53,745 bases of DNA. Origin: Chlamydiota bacterium. GTDB taxonomy: Bacteria > Chlamydiota > Chlamydiia > Chlamydiales > JABHNK01. Positions 4,548-38,861 of this stretch are shown in pieces; within the stretch, counting starts at the first letter, position 1, and every line of letters begins with the position of its first letter. The notes under the pieces are model-generated. The model was not told where the DNA came from and did no database searches. It saw only the letters and a list, made by a program, of their open reading frames with translations. The DNA lies in assembly GCA_051744985.1 (NCBI GenBank), contig JBNJDP010000004.1:1-53745 (forward strand), read 5' to 3'. The translations under genes and the position numbers were made by a program.

Positions 4548-5264
4548 TTAAGTGCAAAGTGTCAGAGCGTATAATTTGGCAGGTTGATCTAAGAGCAGGG
4601 CGTTGGCACAGTCGTTGAGGGTAGTTCCGGTAGTCATAACATCATCGACGATCAAGATGTTTTTATCGACGAGATCGAAATTACGTTTCAAAGTAACTTT
4701 AGAGGGGTGGTTATATTTACGCTGAGAGGCAGGAAGGAAAGTTTGAGAAAAACGGCTATTAGTGATCTGAAAAGGGTTGATGACCTCGACATCGATATAG
4801 TCAGCAAATGCTAAAGCTAGAAGGTGAGCTTGATTGTATCCGCGGCGTAGTCGTCTGAGATAAGAGGTCGGGACAGGAGCGATGAGGTCGGGTTTAGGCC
4901 ATCTCAGACGCATCCACTGGCTATACATTAATTTAGCGGCATAGCCGGCTAAAAAAGGCTGAGAATAATACTTTAGTGACTTTACTATAGTAGCTGCTGC
5001 TCCCTGATAAGGAAGAGCAGCGGCACGCTTTACAAAAGGTGATGGTTTTTTATGACACCTATAGCAATGATTAGTTACAGAATTATACTGGGAGGTGAAA
5101 CAACGTGGGCAGCGTTGGGAAGGGTTGATTATAGTAAGCTCTTCGTAACAGTAGGCACAGAAGATGAAATCAGATGATGGTTCTACTTTTTGAAGACAGT
5201 GGAGGCATAGAGGAGGGAAGCACAGCTGACGAAGCTTGAGAAGGCTACTTTTCAGCATGAGCAT
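4548..5264 (-). CDS. comF: ComF-family protein (zinc-ribbon N-terminus plus phosphoribosyltransferase domain)
   Basis: Four CxxC pairs in the N-terminal 75 aa and the PRPP-binding motif ILIVDDVMTTGTT near the C-terminus. The start overlaps the 3' end of the upstream giant ORF by about 20 nt. Confidence 0.8.
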   Translation of the reverse strand: MLMLKSSLLKLRQLCFPPLCLHCLQKVEPSSDFIFCAYCYEELTIINPSQRCPRCFTSQYNSVTNHCYRCHKKPSPFVKRAAALPYQGAAATIVKSLKYYSQPFLAGYAAKLMYSQWMRLRWPKPDLIAPVPTSYLRRLRRGYNQAHLLALAFADYIDVEVINPFQITNSRFSQTFLPASQRKYNHPSKVTLKRNFDLVDKNILIVDDVMTTGTTLNDCANALLLDQPAKLYALTLCT

Positions 5265-8200
5265 ATTCTACGGGTTGTTTTTGGAAAGTGTAAGAGGGAT
5301 CTTGTAGGGTGCCTCGGATGGTGATAGTAAATAATTCGGCAAGTTTGAAAAGGATGTTGTATTGCTTCATTTTAATTTTAATGTAAAGGTTGCCATTAAA
5401 ATCCATAAAAGAAGTATCGCCTGGCTTTTTTGAGAGGAGGAACTTGGAGATATGACCTTCACTATAAATGTCTTTCAGCTCAGTGAGTTCCACTCTCCCA
5501 TTTCTAATTTGGTATAAGATGGTACCTTTAACAGGAGTGAGCATGTCGGGATCAAGACCGATGCGGGCAATAAGGTCAGCGGGGATAGCTAGCAAAGATT
5601 TCATGCCACTATTTTTTTTGCTGTTGTTGAACTTAAGATAACCATGGCCTTGGTAGCTGTTTTTATTAAAAAGTTCTCCTTGGAGGTTTTCGAGGCGTAG
5701 CTCATCAATAATGAGAGGGCGAGAGGCACCGCGTCCTTGAGATGAGCTTTCATAGAGGATGCTGGGACGCAAATTTTCAATGGATAGATAGGGGGAGAAA
5801 AAATACCAGCCACGATAATCGCTATGCTTAAAACTTATCTGTGGACAGTGGAAAGTGCCAGCATGGTCTTTAACTTGGATGTTTTTAAGGTAGGTATGCT
5901 GAGGAAGCCAATTAATTTGGGCGTATAGGTTGTCAAAGTTGTACCCCAAAAGTCCAAAATGGCGACCTTTAAGGGTGCCTTTAAATCGGATTTTATGCCA
6001 ATCGTCTTTGTTTAGACTGCATTGGCCTACCATTTCATAGCCATCACCAACCTGCAAGCTTTCGAGCTGTTGTTGTAAATATTCGGGGAATAACCACTTA
6101 AGTTCAGCGAAGTTCATTTGCACCTTTCCTTGGAAGAGGTAGGCTTGGTTTGAGGAATAGTTGCGTAGAGGTAAGATATAAGCTTTAAGACCCGAAAAAT
6201 TACCTTCGATAGTATCGAACTGTAATCCTTGGCTTTCTGAGCGATGCCAGTTGCAGGTTAGCGGCTGCAAACCTTTTACATGTAGCTCTTCAGGAGATTC
6301 ATCACTTAAATTGAGCTGGCCTTCTTTAAGATCAGGGAAGTCAGCAGAGCCATGAACCCAGAAAGTGTGTTGATGGTAGCGGTATTGTGAGGCCCAGTAC
6401 AGTTGATGCAAGTGATAAGAGAGGGTAGAATTTTTAATGTCGTGGTCATAGTTAAGAAAACGGTATGTGCCAGCCTTTAAAGAAAGATCCCATGAAAAGT
6501 CATCGGGGAAAGCGTATAGGCTGAAGCTTCCTTGAAGAGGGGAATTTTTTTTGAGGGTCGGCAGTTCTTCCAAAAATAGGTGTCGAGAATGGTTGTCGAA
6601 AGTTTTTTCTAAAAGGCTACGTAAGCTTTTAAGGTGATGGTAGGGGATAGAAAATTCTAGCCCTTCGAAGGCTAGGGAATGAGTATCTATGCGGTATTTA
6701 AATTTGTTGAGAGTAAACTGCAAATTGTTACTAGGATATCGATTGGTAAACTTTATGCCGTTAATGATCGGATTATCTAAAGCTATCTTTATATGAGAAT
6801 CGATCTCCCATAAACGCTCAGGAACCTTTAAGAAGATTTTCATGTCGCCAGCAGCTTGTAAGTTCCCTTGAGGGAACCAATCTTTTAGTACCGAGGAAAT
6901 AAGGGGGAACTTATCATGGTCAGCGAGGTTCATCTGGAAATTATTTAAATGCCCTTGAAAAAAGCCTTCCTTAGGATGATAATCACCTTCTAAGTCAAAA
7001 ATTACTCTGTGATGAAAAGAACCGTGAAGTTCCTCTAAACGCCACAGATTTTCTTTTTGTAGGAGTCGGCTGTTTATTTCAAGGCCATCGCATTTATAGT
7101 TGTTGACTGTCCACAACTTTCCTTGCTTGGAACCTTGCCATGATAAGCTATTTACAAGGCTATCACCTACTGTTAAGTCATCACCATCGAAAGCAAAATT
7201 ATAAGCCTTTGGGGAAGGGTCAAAGGAGATAGAGCCTTTCAGCTCTCCTAGAAGGGGTAGATCTTGGTAAATGTTAAGGGGATCGCTAGGGATATCGATT
7301 AAGCCGGCTTTAAGAAGGCGTGAAAGGTTAGCTATTAGCGAGTATAAGGGAACTTGAGGGTAAGCTTCTAAAGCTGTAATTTCTCCTAAAGAGCTAGTTT
7401 TAAGATTAACGATATGAGGATTAATGTCTCCAAAGTGAGTAAGCTGTTCATCGAAAGTCCAATGATAGATTGGAGATTCTTTTTGTATCTGGCCTTTAAA
7501 GCGGGCGATTTCACCAATAGAGAAAGCTGTTAAAGAAAGATCAAAATCAGAGGTTTGGGGAGTAAATGTTATCGAGGGAATGTTTATCTCATAGGAGTCC
7601 TGTTGACCTTGGGGGCCGACAGTTAAGCTACCTTTTCCGTCCTTAAGAGTCAATTTTTCGCTGGGGTAGAGGTATTCTAAGTCTACAGAGCCATTATAAA
7701 GTGATAAATTGTTAGGGGAATACGACCCTTCACCATTGAGTATCTGGCCGTATAAAGCGGTTTCAAGATCTAATTTGCCGGAGTGGATCTTCATGGTAAT
7801 TAAAGAAGGATGAGGACCATTATTTACTAAGCCTTGGTAAGGATAATCCCATGTTGGAAGATCTATAAAATGAGAACAAAAATTCTGAAGGTCGGGTAGC
7901 TTACTGCTGTATTCTTGGATGGTAAAATCGATGGTTGTTGTATCTGAAAGAGTATGATCTATATCAATGTTACCTTGAAAAGCTACTTCTTCACAGCTGG
8001 TAGTAATATCGGCAATATTGATAGAGCCTTCTTTGAAATTAACCATAGCGGAAATGTCTTCGAAAATTATTCCCGAATTTTTTTCTAAATACCAGGCTTT
8101 TTCGATGGGAAGATACCCCATATAGGTGTGGTTGATAAAATCATAAGAGTGATAGCCATAATTATCATTGTTAACTCCCACATCGGGTAGGTTGATCTCT

Positions 8201-10221
8201 AAGTTGCTATTGGTAAGAGTTACATCAGACACTTGATATTCAAAAGAAAGGCTTTTAGATGTGAATTTTCCCTGGAGTTGGCCTTGACCGCTGATCGAAA
8301 AGTTGTCATTTTTAAAAATAAAGGGGCTAGCAAACTTTTGCAATGGTAATTGTGAGATGCTGAAATACCCCTTTTCAAGGGATAAGGCCGAGGTGTTGAA
8401 ACCAAAAAGAAGTTTGCTGTATTCGGTGTTATTAGAAATCGTTGCTTGCCCTTCACCTTCTATTCCACCTTGATAGGGCATGAGTGTAGTATTTACAATT
8501 ATATTGTCGTCAGGAAAGCCTTTGTTGATGGCAGTTTTTATGTTGTCATTAAAGAGGGATGCAAAGTCGCTACCCAAGCCTTCTAAGCGGCAAGCGAGAG
8601 CTTGGTCTTGCTGGGAGCCATCAACTTCGGCATTGACCTTAATATTACCACATTGTGCTGTAAGGGCAGATTTTATGATCACCCCTTCATCGATAACTAG
8701 CTCGGAATTTATTCTTTCCAATTCCAAAGAAGGTAAGATAGGAGTATAGCATTTGATACTACCTTCGTTAAGGCTCAAGGAGGTGGTTAGGGTCGTTGAA
8801 GGATAGGGGTGGCTAAAGTCTATGTTTGCCGTCCCCTGAGCTTTTGATAGAAAGCCTTGTACTCTATGAGTTTCTGATTGAAAGGAGGCATCTTTGAGGG
8901 AAAGATTTTTGATCTCCACCAGGGAAATTTGTTCTTCACTTAAACCTAGAGAGATGTTGCCGTCGAAAGTTCCTCCTAAGATACTAAAATCTGAGGAATA
9001 CTGGGAGATAATAAAATCGAGCTCGTGTTGAGTTAAATTACTGAAAGATAAATCCAAATAGTTTTGAGGATCCATAATCATGGCAATTTTGCGAGGGGCA
9101 TTGCCGGGAGGTTTAATGGTTAATTGACTTTGGATAAAAGGCCTATCAAAGGCTATAAGGTTCATAGTGCCTTCAAGCTCAAGCGGATAACGTTGGTCTA
9201 GAGCTTTAATTCCATGTCCTTTTAGATGACTTATTCCATCCACAATTTCCAGTTCTCCACTGATAGCTTCGATGGAGTTATAAGGTAAGTTAAGATAACC
9301 ATCTTCAGGGATAATAACATAGCTATCGGTAGTGCTTATTAGGGCATTAAAAGTTTCGATAAGACTATTAGGAGGAGAGGACGGGAATTGGTAATGCGCA
9401 TGGTTTTCAAAGAAAAAGTCTACAAGAGGAGCCTCAAATTCTGTTGATCCTTGAGGGGAAGAAACTATAAGGTTGGAGAGTGCCAGCTTACCTCCTAAAG
9501 AGGGTGCTGATAAAGCTGGGCGCTCTAAGTTTAAAATACCATCGAGGGTACCTTTATGCCATTGTCCTCTTTTTACTATGCTGGGGTAAAAGAAAGCTAT
9601 AGTATCAAAAAGGGGCCGGCCTGATGTGTGGTAGAAGGTTAGTGATGAGTGCTGATCTCCTTCGAATTCTTGATGATGAAAGCTTAAAGAGCCTTCATCT
9701 TGTGAAAAAGATATCTTTAAATCCGTTTCATTCCTGGGAGAGGGAAGACGATAGCCTGAAAAAGTGATCTCCTCCCGCAGGGTGGCTTCTTCATAAAGCT
9801 TGCAGGACCCATGGTTAAAGCTTAGCTTTGCCGTTAGTTGAGGAGTAAAAATTAACTTCTTAATATCGAAAGGAAGAGGAGGTAATGCACTAGATTTTTT
9901 AGTGATCTGGATTTCTGGTGAGAAGAGTCTAATATTAGGAATAATTTTAAAATGAGCCAGATCGACGTTGTAGCTAATTTCTACCCTTTCCGCTTTAAAT
10001 TGATAACTCCCTTCTTGGTGATTGAAAAAAGTGACGTTGGCGATCTTAACTCGTCCGTCATCAGTAATGGATGTTTTTTCATAAGCCGCTTGGGAGTTAA
10101 AAGCTTGTTCACAAAAGATGTTTAGCCGCCATTCTACCAGCTTGACAAAAAGCGGCTGACGAAAAGCCACGATTCCTATGGCCATCAGGACGATAAGGTT
10201 AAGAAAGATGAATTTTTTCAT
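5245..10221 (-). CDS. Giant envelope protein with an N-terminal signal anchor, AsmA/TamB-like by architecture only
   Basis: An uninterrupted ORF of about 1660-1690 aa. The likely start is MKKFIFLNLIVLMAIGIVAF (ATG 10221); the ORF track extends it to 10320. It has beta-rich, low-complexity-free composition and no catalytic motif I recognise. Its existence as a gene is certain, but the family call is weak. Confidence 0.5.
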   Translation of the reverse strand: MKKFIFLNLIVLMAIGIVAFRQPLFVKLVEWRLNIFCEQAFNSQAAYEKTSITDDGRVKIANVTFFNHQEGSYQFKAERVEISYNVDLAHFKIIPNIRLFSPEIQITKKSSALPPLPFDIKKLIFTPQLTAKLSFNHGSCKLYEEATLREEITFSGYRLPSPRNETDLKISFSQDEGSLSFHHQEFEGDQHSSLTFYHTSGRPLFDTIAFFYPSIVKRGQWHKGTLDGILNLERPALSAPSLGGKLALSNLIVSSPQGSTEFEAPLVDFFFENHAHYQFPSSPPNSLIETFNALISTTDSYVIIPEDGYLNLPYNSIEAISGELEIVDGISHLKGHGIKALDQRYPLELEGTMNLIAFDRPFIQSQLTIKPPGNAPRKIAMIMDPQNYLDLSFSNLTQHELDFIISQYSSDFSILGGTFDGNISLGLSEEQISLVEIKNLSLKDASFQSETHRVQGFLSKAQGTANIDFSHPYPSTTLTTSLSLNEGSIKCYTPILPSLELERINSELVIDEGVIIKSALTAQCGNIKVNAEVDGSQQDQALACRLEGLGSDFASLFNDNIKTAINKGFPDDNIIVNTTLMPYQGGIEGEGQATISNNTEYSKLLFGFNTSALSLEKGYFSISQLPLQKFASPFIFKNDNFSISGQGQLQGKFTSKSLSFEYQVSDVTLTNSNLEINLPDVGVNNDNYGYHSYDFINHTYMGYLPIEKAWYLEKNSGIIFEDISAMVNFKEGSINIADITTSCEEVAFQGNIDIDHTLSDTTTIDFTIQEYSSKLPDLQNFCSHFIDLPTWDYPYQGLVNNGPHPSLITMKIHSGKLDLETALYGQILNGEGSYSPNNLSLYNGSVDLEYLYPSEKLTLKDGKGSLTVGPQGQQDSYEINIPSITFTPQTSDFDLSLTAFSIGEIARFKGQIQKESPIYHWTFDEQLTHFGDINPHIVNLKTSSLGEITALEAYPQVPLYSLIANLSRLLKAGLIDIPSDPLNIYQDLPLLGELKGSISFDPSPKAYNFAFDGDDLTVGDSLVNSLSWQGSKQGKLWTVNNYKCDGLEINSRLLQKENLWRLEELHGSFHHRVIFDLEGDYHPKEGFFQGHLNNFQMNLADHDKFPLISSVLKDWFPQGNLQAAGDMKIFLKVPERLWEIDSHIKIALDNPIINGIKFTNRYPSNNLQFTLNKFKYRIDTHSLAFEGLEFSIPYHHLKSLRSLLEKTFDNHSRHLFLEELPTLKKNSPLQGSFSLYAFPDDFSWDLSLKAGTYRFLNYDHDIKNSTLSYHLHQLYWASQYRYHQHTFWVHGSADFPDLKEGQLNLSDESPEELHVKGLQPLTCNWHRSESQGLQFDTIEGNFSGLKAYILPLRNYSSNQAYLFQGKVQMNFAELKWLFPEYLQQQLESLQVGDGYEMVGQCSLNKDDWHKIRFKGTLKGRHFGLLGYNFDNLYAQINWLPQHTYLKNIQVKDHAGTFHCPQISFKHSDYRGWYFFSPYLSIENLRPSILYESSSQGRGASRPLIIDELRLENLQGELFNKNSYQGHGYLKFNNSKKNSGMKSLLAIPADLIARIGLDPDMLTPVKGTILYQIRNGRVELTELKDIYSEGHISKFLLSKKPGDTSFMDFNGNLYIKIKMKQYNILFKLAELFTITIRGTLQDPSYTFQKQPVEYAHAEK

Positions 10222-10409
10222 ATTAAGGTCATCATAACTAATCGGGTTTTCGTGATAAAGATTTTTTCCTTTCACAAAACTCTGGAGGGCAATCCGTCTC
10301 GTGATATCTTCTAACATCACAGGTTAAAGAAAAGGTTGACAAATTCCAAGGGTGAGGAGAAGAATGAAATTAAATTATTAATGTAAAACATTCTTTGGAG
10401 GAGGTGTTT

Positions 10410-29865: not shown

Positions 29866-31497
29866 CTAGGTCTTGCTTTTCTTTTCAGCGATACGCTGTT
29901 CTTGGCTTAACCTGCCAAGGTCATAACCCTCGTAGTCGACGAACTTGAAAAAGCTTTCAAAATGAGGATAGGCAGCAATAACCTCTTGGGCCATCTTTTG
30001 AGCAATATGGCGGTAGTTGATGTGGCCGGCAGAGGCTGAACGCATCTCGCAAAGCCACTGCAATTCGCGCAAGTTAATATGGAAATACCAGCGTATATTA
30101 TAAGCCATAGGAACAATATATTGGGCTTCTTCGGGCAGCTCTTTGGCGATCAAAGTATAAGCTTCACGAGCTTTATCCATAGCTATGCGGTAGTTGGCTT
30201 CCATATCGGTACCTAAAATTTCTTGAGGGATAAAATATCCATAGTTACAACTTAGCAGTTGTCTTTGTTGAGAAGTCATCCTATGGCGCTGGAGGTCACG
30301 ATAAACACCGAAGTCCGCTATAATCTCAAAACAAAATTCAGCCCTTTCTAAAGCCCTTGGAGATTTGTGTCGGCGATTTTCTCGGGGATTGGTAGCAGCG
30401 TCGAAGATCCTATCCAAGTCCTCTTCAGGTAGCTGGGCGCAAACTTCTTCAAGTTCTTCAAGACCTTTATCGCAGTGTTTGTACATAAGAGATGCTGCAA
30501 CTTTAGTAGCTGCTTCATGGTCTGAGGATATCAAGCGCACCCCAGGAGAGGTGTTAGATTTAGGGAAGTCAGTATATTGCTGGGTGACGAGGTTTAGTTC
30601 TTCTTCCATAGCTTCGGTGAACTCAGCAAATGATTGGTGATATTTATGGCTGGGCTCGCTGCGCCGTACAAAAGAAGGTATAACTTTAGCAAGCTCGTTG
30701 TAGATTTCCTTGCCTGCCGATTGTAGTTCAGCTAAATTATGACATTCCATTTTATGGATAAGGTATTCGAAAAAACGCCCGTTGCCATAAAGACCTAAGT
30801 TGGTCATGGTCGATGCTGGCAATAAGCCTCTTAAGCAATCGAGAACTTTTGCTCGTAATGAAGATGTGTAGGCAGCTTGAGATGTTTCACCATCTTTAGG
30901 GAATTTCTTTTTCATCAACTCCGTTAAAGGAGGGATAAGGTTGCTATAAGTGTCAAAGAGCATGTTGCAGGTATCGATATACTGGTTGCGATACGCCGAA
31001 GTCATCAAAATCGGCTCTCGGTAGAACATGTACTCTCCATTGACTTTTTGGTCGAAATAAATATAGCGGGTAGACTTTTCTAGGGGCGAGCCTCCTATCC
31101 TGGAATCTTCGATAGCTTTTGCTGCAATCATAGAAACATTTTCTACAGCAAGGTGGGCGCCGCCCATCTCTCCTACAGAATCATCGCCGAAGCCGTCGAG
31201 GATACGGTCGTAGAAATTTTGTGCTTTTTTAAGTGCCAAATAAGGAACATCTTTACTCTCGCTAGACTGTTCATCGATTTCAGCTAGAGCCTGAAAGCCG
31301 GATTCGTCGCTAGAAAGAAACTCCTTGAGAAGTAGAGCGCGTAAGCCTAAAGTTGAACGAGAATAACGGGAAAATAATGCCCCTTTAATAACTTCGGGAA
31401 GGTTAAATAGTACAAAAACATTGCCGGTAGTGCTGGAAACATAATTGTTAAGAATATTAATCTGCTCTTCTGACAAACCTTCGACATTTTCTTCCAT
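29866..31497 (-). CDS. thyX: Flavin-dependent thymidylate synthase ThyX, long chlamydial-type form
   Basis: 543 aa with the ThyX motif RHRMTS (in LQRHRMTSQQRQ) in the C-terminal half. The length matches the roughly 530-aa ThyX of Chlamydia. Confidence 0.85.
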   Translation of the reverse strand: MEENVEGLSEEQINILNNYVSSTTGNVFVLFNLPEVIKGALFSRYSRSTLGLRALLLKEFLSSDESGFQALAEIDEQSSESKDVPYLALKKAQNFYDRILDGFGDDSVGEMGGAHLAVENVSMIAAKAIEDSRIGGSPLEKSTRYIYFDQKVNGEYMFYREPILMTSAYRNQYIDTCNMLFDTYSNLIPPLTELMKKKFPKDGETSQAAYTSSLRAKVLDCLRGLLPASTMTNLGLYGNGRFFEYLIHKMECHNLAELQSAGKEIYNELAKVIPSFVRRSEPSHKYHQSFAEFTEAMEEELNLVTQQYTDFPKSNTSPGVRLISSDHEAATKVAASLMYKHCDKGLEELEEVCAQLPEEDLDRIFDAATNPRENRRHKSPRALERAEFCFEIIADFGVYRDLQRHRMTSQQRQLLSCNYGYFIPQEILGTDMEANYRIAMDKAREAYTLIAKELPEEAQYIVPMAYNIRWYFHINLRELQWLCEMRSASAGHINYRHIAQKMAQEVIAAYPHFESFFKFVDYEGYDLGRLSQEQRIAEKKSKT

Positions 31498-35669: not shown

Positions 35670-36404
35670 ATGAAAATAATACGCAAACATTTTAAAAGTA
35701 TTTCTTCTACCAACAGTTGGCTGAAAAAGGATCTTCGCTCTTGGAATAACGATGAGATGATGGTCATCAGCTCAGATCAACAAATATCAGGGCGAGGGCG
35801 GGGCGAGCGTTACTGGGCTTCACCGGCTGAAGGAAACATTTATCTTAGTTTTGGTTTTAAACTCCCTCTTCCTTGCGATTATGTTGCTAACGTTGCTCAA
35901 GTGCTGGCTATTGCGGCCGTTAAAGCATGTCAAGAACTAGGCTTTAAGGTTAAAATAAAGTGGCCTAACGACCTTATTCTTAACGGTAACAAGCTGGGAG
36001 GGGTTTTGTGCGAAGTCATAACGGAGCGTGATCATTGCAGAGTGGTAGCAGGGATAGGCTTAAACGTCAACATGTCCTCAGAGGTGCTAGCGTCTATCGA
36101 TCAACCTGCAACATCCCTAAAAGCTGAAACAGGACAAGAATATGATCATAATGCTATTAGAACTCTTATAGAAAAATATTTTTTTGAGGCTTTGCAAATT
36201 TTAAAAGAACAGGGTTTTTACCCTTTTTATCTAGTATTAGATAAGCTGCTATACTTGAAAAAAGAAAAGATCGCCATCGATGACGGAAAGCGGCAATTTG
36301 AGGCTGTGTGGGAAAAACTTAATGGCGATGGCAGTATCAGGCTACGTAAGCTTGATGGATCTGTAGTAGATATTGCTGGGGGAGAGATCTCTTATATTAA
36401 CTAA
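35670..36404 (+). CDS. birA: Biotin--[acetyl-CoA-carboxylase] ligase (class I, no HTH domain)
   Basis: 244 aa with the signature GRGRGERYWASP and KWPNDLILNGNKLGGVL. Confidence 0.9.
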   Translation: MKIIRKHFKSISSTNSWLKKDLRSWNNDEMMVISSDQQISGRGRGERYWASPAEGNIYLSFGFKLPLPCDYVANVAQVLAIAAVKACQELGFKVKIKWPNDLILNGNKLGGVLCEVITERDHCRVVAGIGLNVNMSSEVLASIDQPATSLKAETGQEYDHNAIRTLIEKYFFEALQILKEQGFYPFYLVLDKLLYLKKEKIAIDDGKRQFEAVWEKLNGDGSIRLRKLDGSVVDIAGGEISYIN

Positions 36405-36440
36405 TTATATTAACTAAACTTCATTTAAAGGTAATTTTAT

Positions 36441-38573
36441 ATGCGTATTACACCTAATAATAATCTTCATCACTTGTCGCAATCGGCTCCTGTAACACCC
36501 GAAGGGCGTCCATTAGACCCACGTGAGGAGGCTACTATAAGAGCTGCTCAGGAAAACCTAGGGCATCTTCAAGATGCCCTATCTGGAGACCACTCTCCCA
36601 TATCTCCTGCGAGTGCACGTCTTTTAAGTAGTTCTCCACATAATTTTTCGCCTTCATTTAATACGAGCTTGGATAAAATGGTAGAACGAGCAGCGCGGGA
36701 ACCTTATAGACCTAATGTAGAGGGGAGTGCTCAATATGTGTCCGTAGATCCAGAGAGTGCAATAGTAATGAAGCAAGGAGCAGAAGCATATTTTCATACT
36801 ACTATGTGTTATGAGATCGACAAATCGCTAGGCTTCAATGTGGTTCCAGAATCAGCCGTTTCATCCGTTCCAAAATATCAGACGGATATAGTTCTCCAAG
36901 ATGATGGAACTCCTAAGGAATATATTGAAGGGGTAACTGCTCAAGGTACAGCTATCCTTCTTGAGTCTGAAAAAATACCTAATGAAATACTTGAAGTTGT
37001 TGATACCCCCTTAGGTGTTTTTTTAACCGATGGCCTACATGAGTGGCACCTAGAGACAAATACTGAGAATGAGCAAAGTGTTCAAAATAATAACATTCTA
37101 GATACCCTTATTAAAGAAGGAGGCGTTGAGTTTTCGCAGCTTGAAGCAGCTGATGAAGAGCTATTCTTATATCCTACAAGTGTGCATCGCTATCCTATAA
37201 TTCAAGACTCAGAGGGTAAACTATACATTAAAATTGGAGAACAGCAGTATGTTCTCAGGACTTGTAAGGATGGTTCTTGCCAAATAGAAGGTTGGCGAGA
37301 TGGAGCTGCTTATGAGTGGCAAATACTCCAAGAATACGAAGAAGATGTTAGTGATAGTGATAGTGATATAGTTTTTGGATACAGTAGCGATGATGATACA
37401 GGTGAGGTCGTTAGCGATAGTGATAGCGATGATGATACAGGTGAGGTCGTTAGCGATAGTGATAGCGATGATGACGTGGAAACAAATGCTTATGTAGTAT
37501 GTAAAGATTTTATGATCCCTATAGTAGAAGGGAGGCAGATCTCATATGCCGGCAATAGTTATAACGTTTCAAATATGGGCGAGGGTTCTTATGATATAGT
37601 CCGTCAAGGTGAATCTAGTAACCCTGATCTTCCGGAAGAATATGACAATGAAGGGATTGATGAAGTAGTGATTGGTGAAAAGCACTATATTACTCCTCAG
37701 TCATTTTATCATGAGTTCCAGGGTGATGAGAACCATAAATATGTTGAGCTGGAAGGGAATAGATTTTATTTTGAGAATGGCCAGCTTAGCCTTAAAGATA
37801 TGCCTTCTTTGGCGCAACAATACATCCCAGATTTATATCAAGGTAATTTGTCAAAGCTTAGTCAGGAAGAGCTTAAGGAATTTTGTGATAAAATTAACTC
37901 GCAGAGCTTGATAAATACTATTATCATGAGTGCTCTGGTATCCCCCCAAGATGGTAAAGTCTATTACAAACCTTCTCAGAATAATTATGTTTTTCAAGAG
38001 GAAGCTACTCAGCCAGAGGAGTATAAGGTTTGGATGATCGACCTTGATGACACCATGCCCTCCAATAATGAGCAATCTGCTATTATAAAAGATGCCTCTT
38101 CCCTGCGCTGTGGTTTATTGGGGCTGCCTAGTTGTCTTAGAGAACTTGGCGCAGATGACAAAAAATATACTTTACAGCAACTGAGGCATGTTCTCGATCA
38201 GCGTGAGAAGCTTACGAATCTACTAGGAGAATATCGCCCATTTGTAGAAGAGCATTTTCCTAGTGAGAATCCTGAAGATATCTTCGACGAGCAGCATATT
38301 CAAGCTTTTGAAGAAAGACTTAACAACCTTCATCAGTTCTTGGATAGCGAACAAGCTCAAGGGGAGTTTAGCTTATTGGATGTTGTCGGCGCAATTATCC
38401 CTTCATATCGTAGAGAATGGGACGCTTATACAGCCGCCGAAACACCGTTAGATCCTATGCAGATAGCTGATTATATAGGTTGTATGCCTGATGGCCTAGC
38501 TCAAGATCGAGGTTGGGCGGATTTTACGGCGTCTGATTTGGCTACCCTTTTTTCAGAGGGCAAGGCGGAATAG
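36441..38573 (+). CDS. Hypothetical 710-aa protein: disordered N-terminus, acidic SD-repeat insertion, PI3/4-kinase-like motifs (candidate secreted effector)
   Basis: The first ~100 aa are Pro/Ser-rich with no signal peptide. Kinase-like motifs by eye: AIVMK(111)QG, YEIDKSLGFNVVPES (124-138), SPQD(504)GK...QNNYVF, and WMID(534)LDD. An acidic repeat lies at aa 303-346. See findings. Confidence 0.5.
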   Translation: MRITPNNNLHHLSQSAPVTPEGRPLDPREEATIRAAQENLGHLQDALSGDHSPISPASARLLSSSPHNFSPSFNTSLDKMVERAAREPYRPNVEGSAQYVSVDPESAIVMKQGAEAYFHTTMCYEIDKSLGFNVVPESAVSSVPKYQTDIVLQDDGTPKEYIEGVTAQGTAILLESEKIPNEILEVVDTPLGVFLTDGLHEWHLETNTENEQSVQNNNILDTLIKEGGVEFSQLEAADEELFLYPTSVHRYPIIQDSEGKLYIKIGEQQYVLRTCKDGSCQIEGWRDGAAYEWQILQEYEEDVSDSDSDIVFGYSSDDDTGEVVSDSDSDDDTGEVVSDSDSDDDVETNAYVVCKDFMIPIVEGRQISYAGNSYNVSNMGEGSYDIVRQGESSNPDLPEEYDNEGIDEVVIGEKHYITPQSFYHEFQGDENHKYVELEGNRFYFENGQLSLKDMPSLAQQYIPDLYQGNLSKLSQEELKEFCDKINSQSLINTIIMSALVSPQDGKVYYKPSQNNYVFQEEATQPEEYKVWMIDLDDTMPSNNEQSAIIKDASSLRCGLLGLPSCLRELGADDKKYTLQQLRHVLDQREKLTNLLGEYRPFVEEHFPSENPEDIFDEQHIQAFEERLNNLHQFLDSEQAQGEFSLLDVVGAIIPSYRREWDAYTAAETPLDPMQIADYIGCMPDGLAQDRGWADFTASDLATLFSEGKAE
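37386..37474 (+). repeat. 39-bp perfect tandem repeat (2 full units plus 11 nt) encoding SDSDSDDDTGEVV
   Basis: AGCGATGATGATACAGGTGAGGTCGTTAGCGATAGTGAT at 37386-37424 repeats exactly at 37425-37463, and a third unit starts at 37464. A related GTTAGTGATAGTGATAGTGAT lies just upstream. Confidence 0.9.
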
Positions 38574-38861
38574 CCAGCCTGCACTTTCTGGAGAATGATT
38601 GAGCAGCTCAGGGGTTTCCTTGAGCTGCTCATTAACTTCTAATACCGTGCCCGCTATGGGAGAATATATCTCGGTAGCAGCTTTGGTGGATTCCAATAAG
38701 ACAGCCTGCTCACCGTAGTCCAGCTTTTGCCCAACAGTAGGCAAGTCAACAAAAACTATGGCGCCAAACTCCTCGCTGGCATGGGCGGTGATGCCTATTA
38801 TTCCTCGATCACCGTCGATTTCCATCCAAGTATGAGACTCTTCATAGCGTTGCTTACTCAT
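38553..38861 (-). CDS. gcvH: Glycine-cleavage-system H protein / lipoyl carrier
   Basis: Lipoyl-lysine motif LLESTKAATEIYSPIAG and a C-terminal GWLFRL. The start is taken at MSKQRYEESHTWM (ATG 38861), which overlaps the upstream gene's stop (ATGAGTAA). No gcvP or gcvT is in the window. Confidence 0.9.
   Translation of the reverse strand: MSKQRYEESHTWMEIDGDRGIIGITAHASEEFGAIVFVDLPTVGQKLDYGEQAVLLESTKAATEIYSPIAGTVLEVNEQLKETPELLNHSPESAGWLFRLAL

Follow-up and report, generated by a model that had tools for sequence, protein, structure and literature searches.

A chlamydial open reading frame encoding a probable atypical kinase with a predicted core nearest to type II phosphatidylinositol 4-kinases

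Introduction

Can a chlamydial protein that belongs to no annotated family be a kinase and, if so, of which kind? This question is raised by an open reading frame (ORF) located at 36441..38573 on the forward strand of a 53,745-nucleotide stretch from a Chlamydiota bacterium (GenBank assembly GCA_051744985.1, contig JBNJDP010000004.1, positions 1 to 53,745); the whole of this stretch of DNA is hereafter referred to as the window. Read directly from the sequence, the ORF has an ATG start, a TAG stop and a product of 710 amino acids (aa), which we call the query. An earlier note on this DNA, made by eye, had described the product as a candidate effector carrying the landmarks of the type II phosphatidylinositol (PI) 4-kinases (PI4KII), with a large insertion interrupting the fold. 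New host-manipulation chemistry has come to light time and again from atypical kinases that intracellular bacteria inject.

By combining homology searches, alignment, AlphaFold2 models and Foldseek comparisons, we identified this coding sequence as a divergent member of an unannotated family of atypical kinases with a PI4KII fold. We consider it likely that the protein is catalytically competent, with a core nearest that of the eukaryotic type II PI 4-kinases.

Results

An exhaustive HMMER search of 1.84 billion cluster representatives recovered 58 relatives of the query, with E values of 1e-16 to 1e-3 and 24-34% identity over the matched stretches, which fall mostly on query residues ~470-685. 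None of these 58 proteins carries any annotation. The 59 aligned sequences (query plus relatives) have a mean identity of 16% per column, and no more than five columns show no variation at all, namely those of D504, N515, D534, G558 and L559. The motifs quoted by the earlier note are all present at the residues it assigned to them, namely AIVMK(111)QG, EAYFH...VVPES at 115-138, SPQD(504)GK, NNYVF at 514-518 and WMID(534)LDD, and they go far beyond chance because D504, N515 and D534 account for three of the five invariant columns. Conservation in relatives had been proposed as a check of the prediction; besides these three residues, K111 is kept in 56 of the 56 full-length members, and G505, K506, I533, D536, R556 and P563 are each conserved in at least 93% of the family. 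The suggestion of N514 and N515 as a conserved pair held for the second residue alone, position 514 being mostly Ser in the family. What had been picked out by eye are thus the residues under the tightest constraint in a genuine protein family.

The N-lobe consensus of this family reads DVY...VVFKPG..AA..A..C..LA.L.GL...VP, and that of the C-lobe F..RID..SFI.AF..TILLRPQDGK...L.ESN.LF....L.P.LIDLDET.P..N....H.VR.GLMGFPQA. Of the 50 family columns with the strongest conservation, the query matches 35, among them all the putative catalytic ones. On the forward strand, the codon of K111 (family motif VFKPG) lies at 36771-36773 and that of the hinge residue Q459 at 37815-37817; the catalytic loop SPQD504GK506...N515 has its D504 codon at 37950-37952 and its N515 codon at 37983-37985, and the D534 codon of the metal-binding motif I533-D534-L-D536 is found at 38040-38042. 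The family alignment further delimits an activation-loop-like segment, R556-x-G558-L559...P563, in the C-lobe.

The family is unannotated, fast-evolving and lineage-restricted, and it is found in chlamydia-like bacteria of the Planctomycetes-Verrucomicrobia-Chlamydiae (PVC) group. The labelled relatives come from a metagenome-assembled genome (MAG) of the Parachlamydiaceae and from a MAG labelled Verrucomicrobia; a profile search of genome contigs with a 13-sequence sub-alignment gave 3 loci, and the taxonomic range is thus poorly sampled. A word-indexed homology search with the query returned the query alone, probably because its low-complexity repeat took up the search words. No paralogue of the kinase gene was present in the window. 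A conserved small partner gene was looked for in the window, at L001, L005 and L006 and on the contig of the relative P0012, and none was seen.

The AlphaFold2 model of the query, built with the family alignment, had a predicted local distance difference test (pLDDT) score of 78.1 and a predicted template modelling (pTM) score of 0.67. Residues 1-22, 41-64 and 302-342 are predicted to be disordered, the region ~160-460 is all-beta, and the hinge strand and C-lobe (aa 456-710, at 37806..38570, delimited by alignment and AlphaFold2) form a helical bundle reaching the C-terminus, mostly with pLDDT >90. When this model was compared with the Protein Data Bank (PDB) using Foldseek, the first 12 matches were all human PI4KIIalpha or PI4KIIbeta, the best of them with an E value of 1.7e-3 and a probability of 1.00; Vps34, PI4KIIIbeta and PI3Kdelta came after them, with CtkA, Fam20A and HipA lower.

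As the insertion depresses the scores of the query, a short relative of 481 aa (P0007) was also modelled. This model reached a pLDDT of 91.3 and a pTM of 0.87, and PI4KIIalpha/beta were its top 8 PDB matches, with target-normalised TM scores of 0.52-0.53. The best was 4hnd_A, with an E value of 7.9e-6 and a TM score of 0.52 over 460 columns, a length which means that the alignment takes in both lobes. Behind these matches ranked PI4KIIIbeta and ordinary protein kinases. When BFVD, a database of predicted viral structures, was searched with Foldseek, the best matches included phage proteins whose annotation names a PI3K/PI4K catalytic domain.

In the AlphaFold2 predictions the fold has two lobes, an N-lobe built on a sheet and alphaC and a C-lobe made of helices, and the Foldseek matches are almost all kinases. 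The predicted elements follow one another as strand, strand with the Lys, alphaC-like helix, beta4, insertion, a hinge strand bearing Q459, a pair of helices, the loop from D504 to N515, a beta-hairpin and D534, which is the canonical kinase order. Together, the conservation of residues in the 58 relatives and the two independent AlphaFold2 models, both of which match PI4KIIalpha/beta best, bear out the type II PI4K-like kinase fold that had been proposed from the motifs. The structure search recommended as a check likewise returned a kinase-like fold, with PI4KII as the best PDB match.

We then compared landmarks with PI4KIIalpha, using a sequence that differs from that of PDB 4hnd in nothing but the Cys-to-Ser substitutions engineered into the CCPCC motif of the latter. 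The ATP-binding Lys is K152 in PI4KIIalpha, K111 in the query and K77 in P0007; the hinge Gln is Q261, Q459 and Q254, respectively; the catalytic Asp D308, D504 and D304; the downstream Asn N313, N515 and N314; the metal-binding Asp D346, D534 and D330; and the Pro of (L/F/Y)PQA P370, P563 and P366. The Pro of the 'VP' that follows alphaC is P209 in PI4KIIalpha and P136 in the query, with no entry for P0007. In PI4KIIalpha, the K152A and F263A/I345A substitutions abolish activity (PMC3974213); in the query, K152 and I345 appear to have their counterparts in K111 and I533.

Three insertions are specific to PI4KIIalpha according to Zhou et al. (PMC3974213): I1 (157-190), I2 (217-255) and I3 (318-340). 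I1 is the palmitoylation insertion, which anchors the enzyme to the membrane and supplies E157, Y159, R181 and L184, so that four of the seven residues that line the PI pocket come from it, while I2 is RK-rich and membrane-binding and I3 lies in the C-lobe (PMC3974213). The I1 insertion with its CCPCC motif is absent from the family: the distance from the Lys to 'VP' is 25 aa, as against 57 aa in PI4KIIalpha, and the alphaC-like helix begins 3 residues past K111. In the N-lobe core of the query (aa 96-145, at 36726..36875), alignment, AlphaFold2 and landmark comparison place two strands, the ATP-binding K111, the alphaC-like helix (residues 114-130) and beta4, which carries 'VVP'. A variable insert is found at the I3 site in many family members.

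The distance from the Lys to the catalytic Asp is 393 aa in the query and 156 aa in PI4KIIalpha, so that the query is longer by ~237 aa, in line with the ~240 extra residues estimated by eye. Since the stretch from the hinge Gln to the catalytic Asp matches that of PI4KIIalpha (47 aa in PI4KIIalpha, 45 aa in the query and 50 aa in P0007), the extra length sits between beta4 and the hinge strand. It corresponds to aa 146-455 of the query, at 36876..37805, as delimited by DSSP, pLDDT, landmark spacing, charge and length variation in the family. The large insertion of the earlier note is therefore real, but it does not cut the fold in two: it is a folded, beta-rich module within the N-lobe, at the I2 position. 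This module measures ~310 aa in the query and ~100-420 aa across the family; because the Lys-to-Asp spacing spans 220-527 aa, the insertion is a family trait, of at least ~100 aa in every member.

In charge, too, the module departs from the I2 loop, with a net charge of -56 in the query and a family median of -23, against +6 for I2 of PI4KIIalpha; it is acidic in nearly every member. The whole 710-aa query has a net charge of -86. The acidic SD repeat noticed earlier does lie inside the insertion, and is encoded by a perfect tandem repeat with a 39-bp unit and 2.3 copies at 37385-37474, preceded by a run of the hexamer TAGTGA. The repeat loop (SDSDSDDDTGEVV; aa 302-347, at 37344..37481) is predicted to be disordered, with a pLDDT of about 30. 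Nearly every member has an acidic low-complexity patch in its insertion, the richest stretch of 25 aa having a median of 10 D/E, so the repeat of the query is the extreme of a family-wide feature rather than an oddity.

Several observations weigh against reading the query as a competent kinase with a PI4KII-like core. The check by the PF00454 profile proposed in the earlier note failed, as this PI3/4-kinase family matched neither the query nor the family consensus, nor was it among the 25 families listed, out of 40, for the 59 members. Sequence searches of Pfam, NCBIfam and the PDB with the query were empty, and a PDB search with the family profile gave nothing meaningful. With hhalign, the comparison with PI4KIIalpha yielded E values of 0.11 for the single sequence and 0.07 for a local, shallow profile, the PI4KII profile being made of near-identical vertebrate sequences with an effective number of sequences (Neff) of about 2. 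The query model's own Foldseek E value is just 1.7e-3, with a low TM score owing to the insertion, and the gathering of K111, D504, N515 and D534 on one pocket is predicted from secondary-structure order and Foldseek superposition. Finally, the query deviates from the family at R501S, P112Q and L511P, changes that could lower activity, and its D-to-N spacing of 11 is unusual when compared with the 5 of PI4KII and ordinary kinases.

The hhalign alignment with an E value of 0.07 paired IDLD with the PI4KII strand 'IKYD' and R556-x-GL with 'IDNGL'. We rejected it because it left the invariant N515 and D534 unaligned and conflicted with the predicted strand order. The sole Pfam family with sequence similarity was CotH (PF08757), matched by 3 of the 59 members at E <1 (best E 3.9e-4); the family-consensus C-lobe matched positions 160-293 of its profile with an E value of 1.1e-3, an alignment that covers most of the aligned C-lobe. 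Membership of CotH was rejected, as the score of 19 bits is below the 23.8-bit gathering cut-off and structural support did not come from the top 50 Foldseek PDB matches of either model, which included no CotH structure. Because membership of PF00454 cannot be detected by sequence, though the type II PI4Ks are closest by structure, we place the proteins in the protein-kinase-like superfamily, as a new family whose core resembles that of PI4KII, and do not count them as members of the PI3/4-kinase family.

The ATG at 36441 is the earliest start downstream of the upstream in-frame stop, and direct reading of the sequence places a likely ribosome-binding site, AAAGG, at 36427..36431 (+), 9 nt 5' of it. 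By composition and AlphaFold2, the N-terminal region (aa 1-95, at 36441..36725) is polar and S/T/P/N-rich, a candidate secretion signal or chaperone-binding region; Pro and Ser make up 24 of residues 1-100. A signal peptide had been thought absent and we agree, since no hydrophobic, signal-like stretch is present at this N-terminus. The description of the first ~100 aa as disordered was right for residues 1-22 and 41-64, but AlphaFold2 places helices at 27-46 and 71-86.

A salt-lake metatranscriptome run contains 82% of the sampled words of the gene, and its contigs are 100% identical to 36360-37057 and 37406-38904, with a word depth of 7-10, whereas the depth of the upstream birA is 0. This evidence comes from contigs, not reads, and such contigs may contain DNA, which counts against taking them as proof of expression. 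One of them ends at 36360 against Illumina adapter sequence, a faint hint that the kinase gene has a separate transcript 5' end at this position, inside the 3' part of birA. A scan for promoters and terminators was uninformative (11 promoter-like sites, with 9.1 expected).

The window has a GC content of ~42%, and its annotated genes include dnaK, hrcA, pheT, uvrB, thyX, rpoN, birA, gcvH, lplA and transporters, together with several ORFs that have no Pfam match. A perfect 13-bp tandem repeat, TTATATTAACTAA in two copies at 36392-36417, spans the birA stop codon and ends 24 nt upstream of the kinase ATG. Downstream, the convergent gcvH (38553-38882, reverse strand) shares 21 nt (38553-38573) with the 3' end of the kinase ORF, which leaves no terminator space between the two. 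Elsewhere in the window, the ThyX homologue at 29866-31497 (-) is 543 aa long, and the best stretch of its Thy1 domain, out of two stretches in total, covers ~326-512, so it carries a long N-terminal extension or a duplication. Two large ORFs, at 5245-10320 (-, 1691 aa) and 38854-41124 (-, 756 aa), had no Pfam match at E <1e-3.

The surroundings of some relatives are also informative. The gene for P0023 (L005, on a 1.25-Mb contig) lies a few kb from that of a YopJ-family acetyltransferase (PF03421), and another relative has an ankyrin-repeat gene nearby. The neighbourhood of P0023 (L005 13093-13605 and 304-5484) also holds a gene for a 1726-aa protein with a faint tetratricopeptide repeat (TPR) match and a weak 'Phospholipase-like' gene, and looks effector-rich. 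The gene for P0003 is directly upstream of a full chemotaxis cluster (L001 4043-11901) encoding a methyl-accepting chemotaxis protein (MCP), CheW, CheR and a CheA-like protein; if that contig is chlamydial, such a cluster is unusual for an obligate intracellular lineage.

Discussion

The conservation of K111, I533-D534, D536, D504-G505-K506 and N515 argues for an active phosphotransferase, and that the protein transfers phosphate is, in our opinion, very likely. In the mechanism that we propose, K111 of VFKPG would hold the ATP phosphates while I533 would pack against the adenine; D504 of the (R/S)PQDGK loop would serve as the catalytic base, K506 and N515 (D+11) may contact the gamma-phosphate and a metal ion, and D534 of IDLD(E/D) would bind Mg2+. 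The N-lobe carries the acidic beta-rich module between beta4 and the hinge residue Q459, with the SD repeat as a disordered loop inside it.

As for the place of action, we lean, by a little, towards delivery of the protein into the host cell, likely by type III secretion. The polar N-termini without a signal peptide seen in most family members are permissive for this, although they are not specific for type III substrates. The rapid evolution and restricted lineage range of the family, and the YopJ-family and ankyrin-repeat genes close to some relatives, also speak for delivery. Against it, no type III secretion, chaperone or effector-cluster genes were seen among the annotated genes of the window, where the neighbours are the housekeeping genes birA, gcvH, lplA and rpoN. 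A bacterial kinase that stays inside the chlamydial cell, serving metabolic or developmental signalling and having a polar N-terminus that is just a linker, would agree with this housekeeping neighbourhood, with the position of the gene 36 nt past birA and with the lack of any adjacent gene for a secretion apparatus or chaperone. However, sequences within the family have diverged widely, above all in their N-termini and insertions, which vary greatly, and the relatives that are labelled or have an informative context all belong to chlamydia-like or small-genome bacteria, beside effector-type genes (YopJ-like, Ank). Moreover, it is common for the effector genes of chlamydiae to lie dispersed between housekeeping genes, and we therefore regard a non-secreted kinase as doubtful.

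As for the substrate, we would give a protein substrate an even chance; it may be a basic protein attracted by the acidic module. PI is a lesser candidate and any other substrate a minor one. Two features point to a protein: the Lys at D+2, as in Ser/Thr kinases, and the hint of similarity to CotH, an atypical protein kinase related to Fam20C which phosphorylates charged Ser-rich repeat proteins (PMC7821199). A wheat type II PI4K is reported to have protein kinase activity, seen as threonine autophosphorylation (PMC3741686), which suggests that the fold does not dictate a lipid substrate.

The protein could instead be a genuine phosphatidylinositol 4-kinase, or another PI kinase, that is secreted and makes phosphatidylinositol 4-phosphate (PI4P) on inclusion or host membranes. 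The best matches of both models are exclusively type II PI4Ks, with PI4KIIIbeta, Vps34 and PI3K next; the VFKP, I-D and (L/F)PQA motifs are common to the family and PI4KII, with matching spacing, and the hydrophobic and basic activation-loop-like segment H..R.GLMGFPQA is conserved. In addition, there are PI kinases among the proteins that Legionella and Francisella secrete, and the inclusions of Chlamydia rely on PI4P. On the other hand, I1, the source of PI-pocket residues and of the membrane anchor, is missing, as reflected in the short Lys-to-alphaC distance (25 vs 57 aa), and PF00454 gives no match. The basic I2 has given way to a strongly acidic module, and the protein as a whole has a net charge of -86, which speaks against its docking on membranes that are anionic. 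Since I1 is lost, the charge of I2 is reversed and the whole protein is extremely acidic, a lipid mechanism like that of PI4KIIalpha is disfavoured, and a PI kinase seems to us unlikely.

A more specific proposal, which we hold to be quite unlikely, is that the family represents a bacterial lineage of type II PI 4-kinases in which I1 and I2 were swapped for an acidic beta-module that would dock on a basic host or inclusion-membrane protein. Chlamydia trachomatis has been reported to recruit host PI4KIIalpha; if this proposal were true, environmental chlamydiae would make PI4P on their own vacuole, not via the recruited host enzyme, and the in-frame perfect SD repeat would tune docking or act as a phospho-regulated switch.

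A kinase fold turned to other chemistry (AMPylation, known from SelO, glutamylation, known from SidJ, or nucleotidyl transfer) or an inactive scaffold is very unlikely: several atypical kinase-fold families do have non-kinase activities, the catalytic loop D-x10-N is unusual and the query lacks the R501 and P112 of its family, but, like true phosphotransferases, the family conserves the full K/D/N/D set together with the D+2 Lys, and the nearest structural neighbours are all true kinases.

An atypical kinase of an unannotated family thus remains our preferred reading, with a core nearest PI4KII. In our literature search we found no paper describing a chlamydia-encoded kinase with the PI4KII fold. 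The family has no Pfam or NCBIfam model and yet combines an intact catalytic set with a high-confidence structural model, and an acidic domain placed exactly where human PI4KII binds membranes is unprecedented. If the enzyme is a lipid kinase, it would revise the view of how chlamydiae come by their PI4P; a protein kinase, on the other hand, would define a new family of effector kinases with a built-in substrate-docking module.

Among secreted PI kinases, Legionella LepB, MavQ and LegA5 and Francisella OpiA rewrite the identity of the vacuole; in analyses not aimed at them, no link in sequence or structure to the family emerged, and none of them turned up in our PDB fold searches. The protein kinases structurally nearest PI4KIIalpha, namely CtkA of H. 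pylori, Fam20A/C and actin-fragmin kinase, gave far weaker matches (probability 0.25-0.6), and they have no motifs in common with the family beyond the catalytic residues. CotH is, like the family, a bacterial atypical kinase, but it is a spore-coat enzyme rather than a candidate effector and is without the large N-lobe insertion.

A functional parallel is provided by XopC2, which represents type III effector kinases of Xanthomonas and Legionella. XopC2 also has no Pfam domain, a disordered N-terminus and the K/D/N/D set, and its kinase domain is unusually long, with 244 aa between K147 and D391 (PMC8445998). It is a functional precedent for a stretched effector kinase; no homology to the family was seen, with no search aimed at it, and it differs from the family in its P-loop-like motif, its D+5 Asn and the phyla in which it occurs.

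The closest known system is PI4KIIalpha/beta itself (PDB 4hnd, 4hne, 4pla and 4wtv), with which the family has in common the Lys-bearing strand with VFKP, a hinge Gln that precedes the catalytic Asp by 45-50 aa, the metal-binding I-D motif, (L/F/Y)PQA 24-36 aa past it, a non-glycine 'G-loop' and inserts at the I2 and I3 sites. In contrast to PI4KIIalpha, a 100-420 aa acidic beta-rich module replaces the 39-aa RK-rich I2 loop, and the catalytic loop of this bacterial family is D-G-K-x8-N, whereas that of PI4KII is D-R-G-N-D-N.

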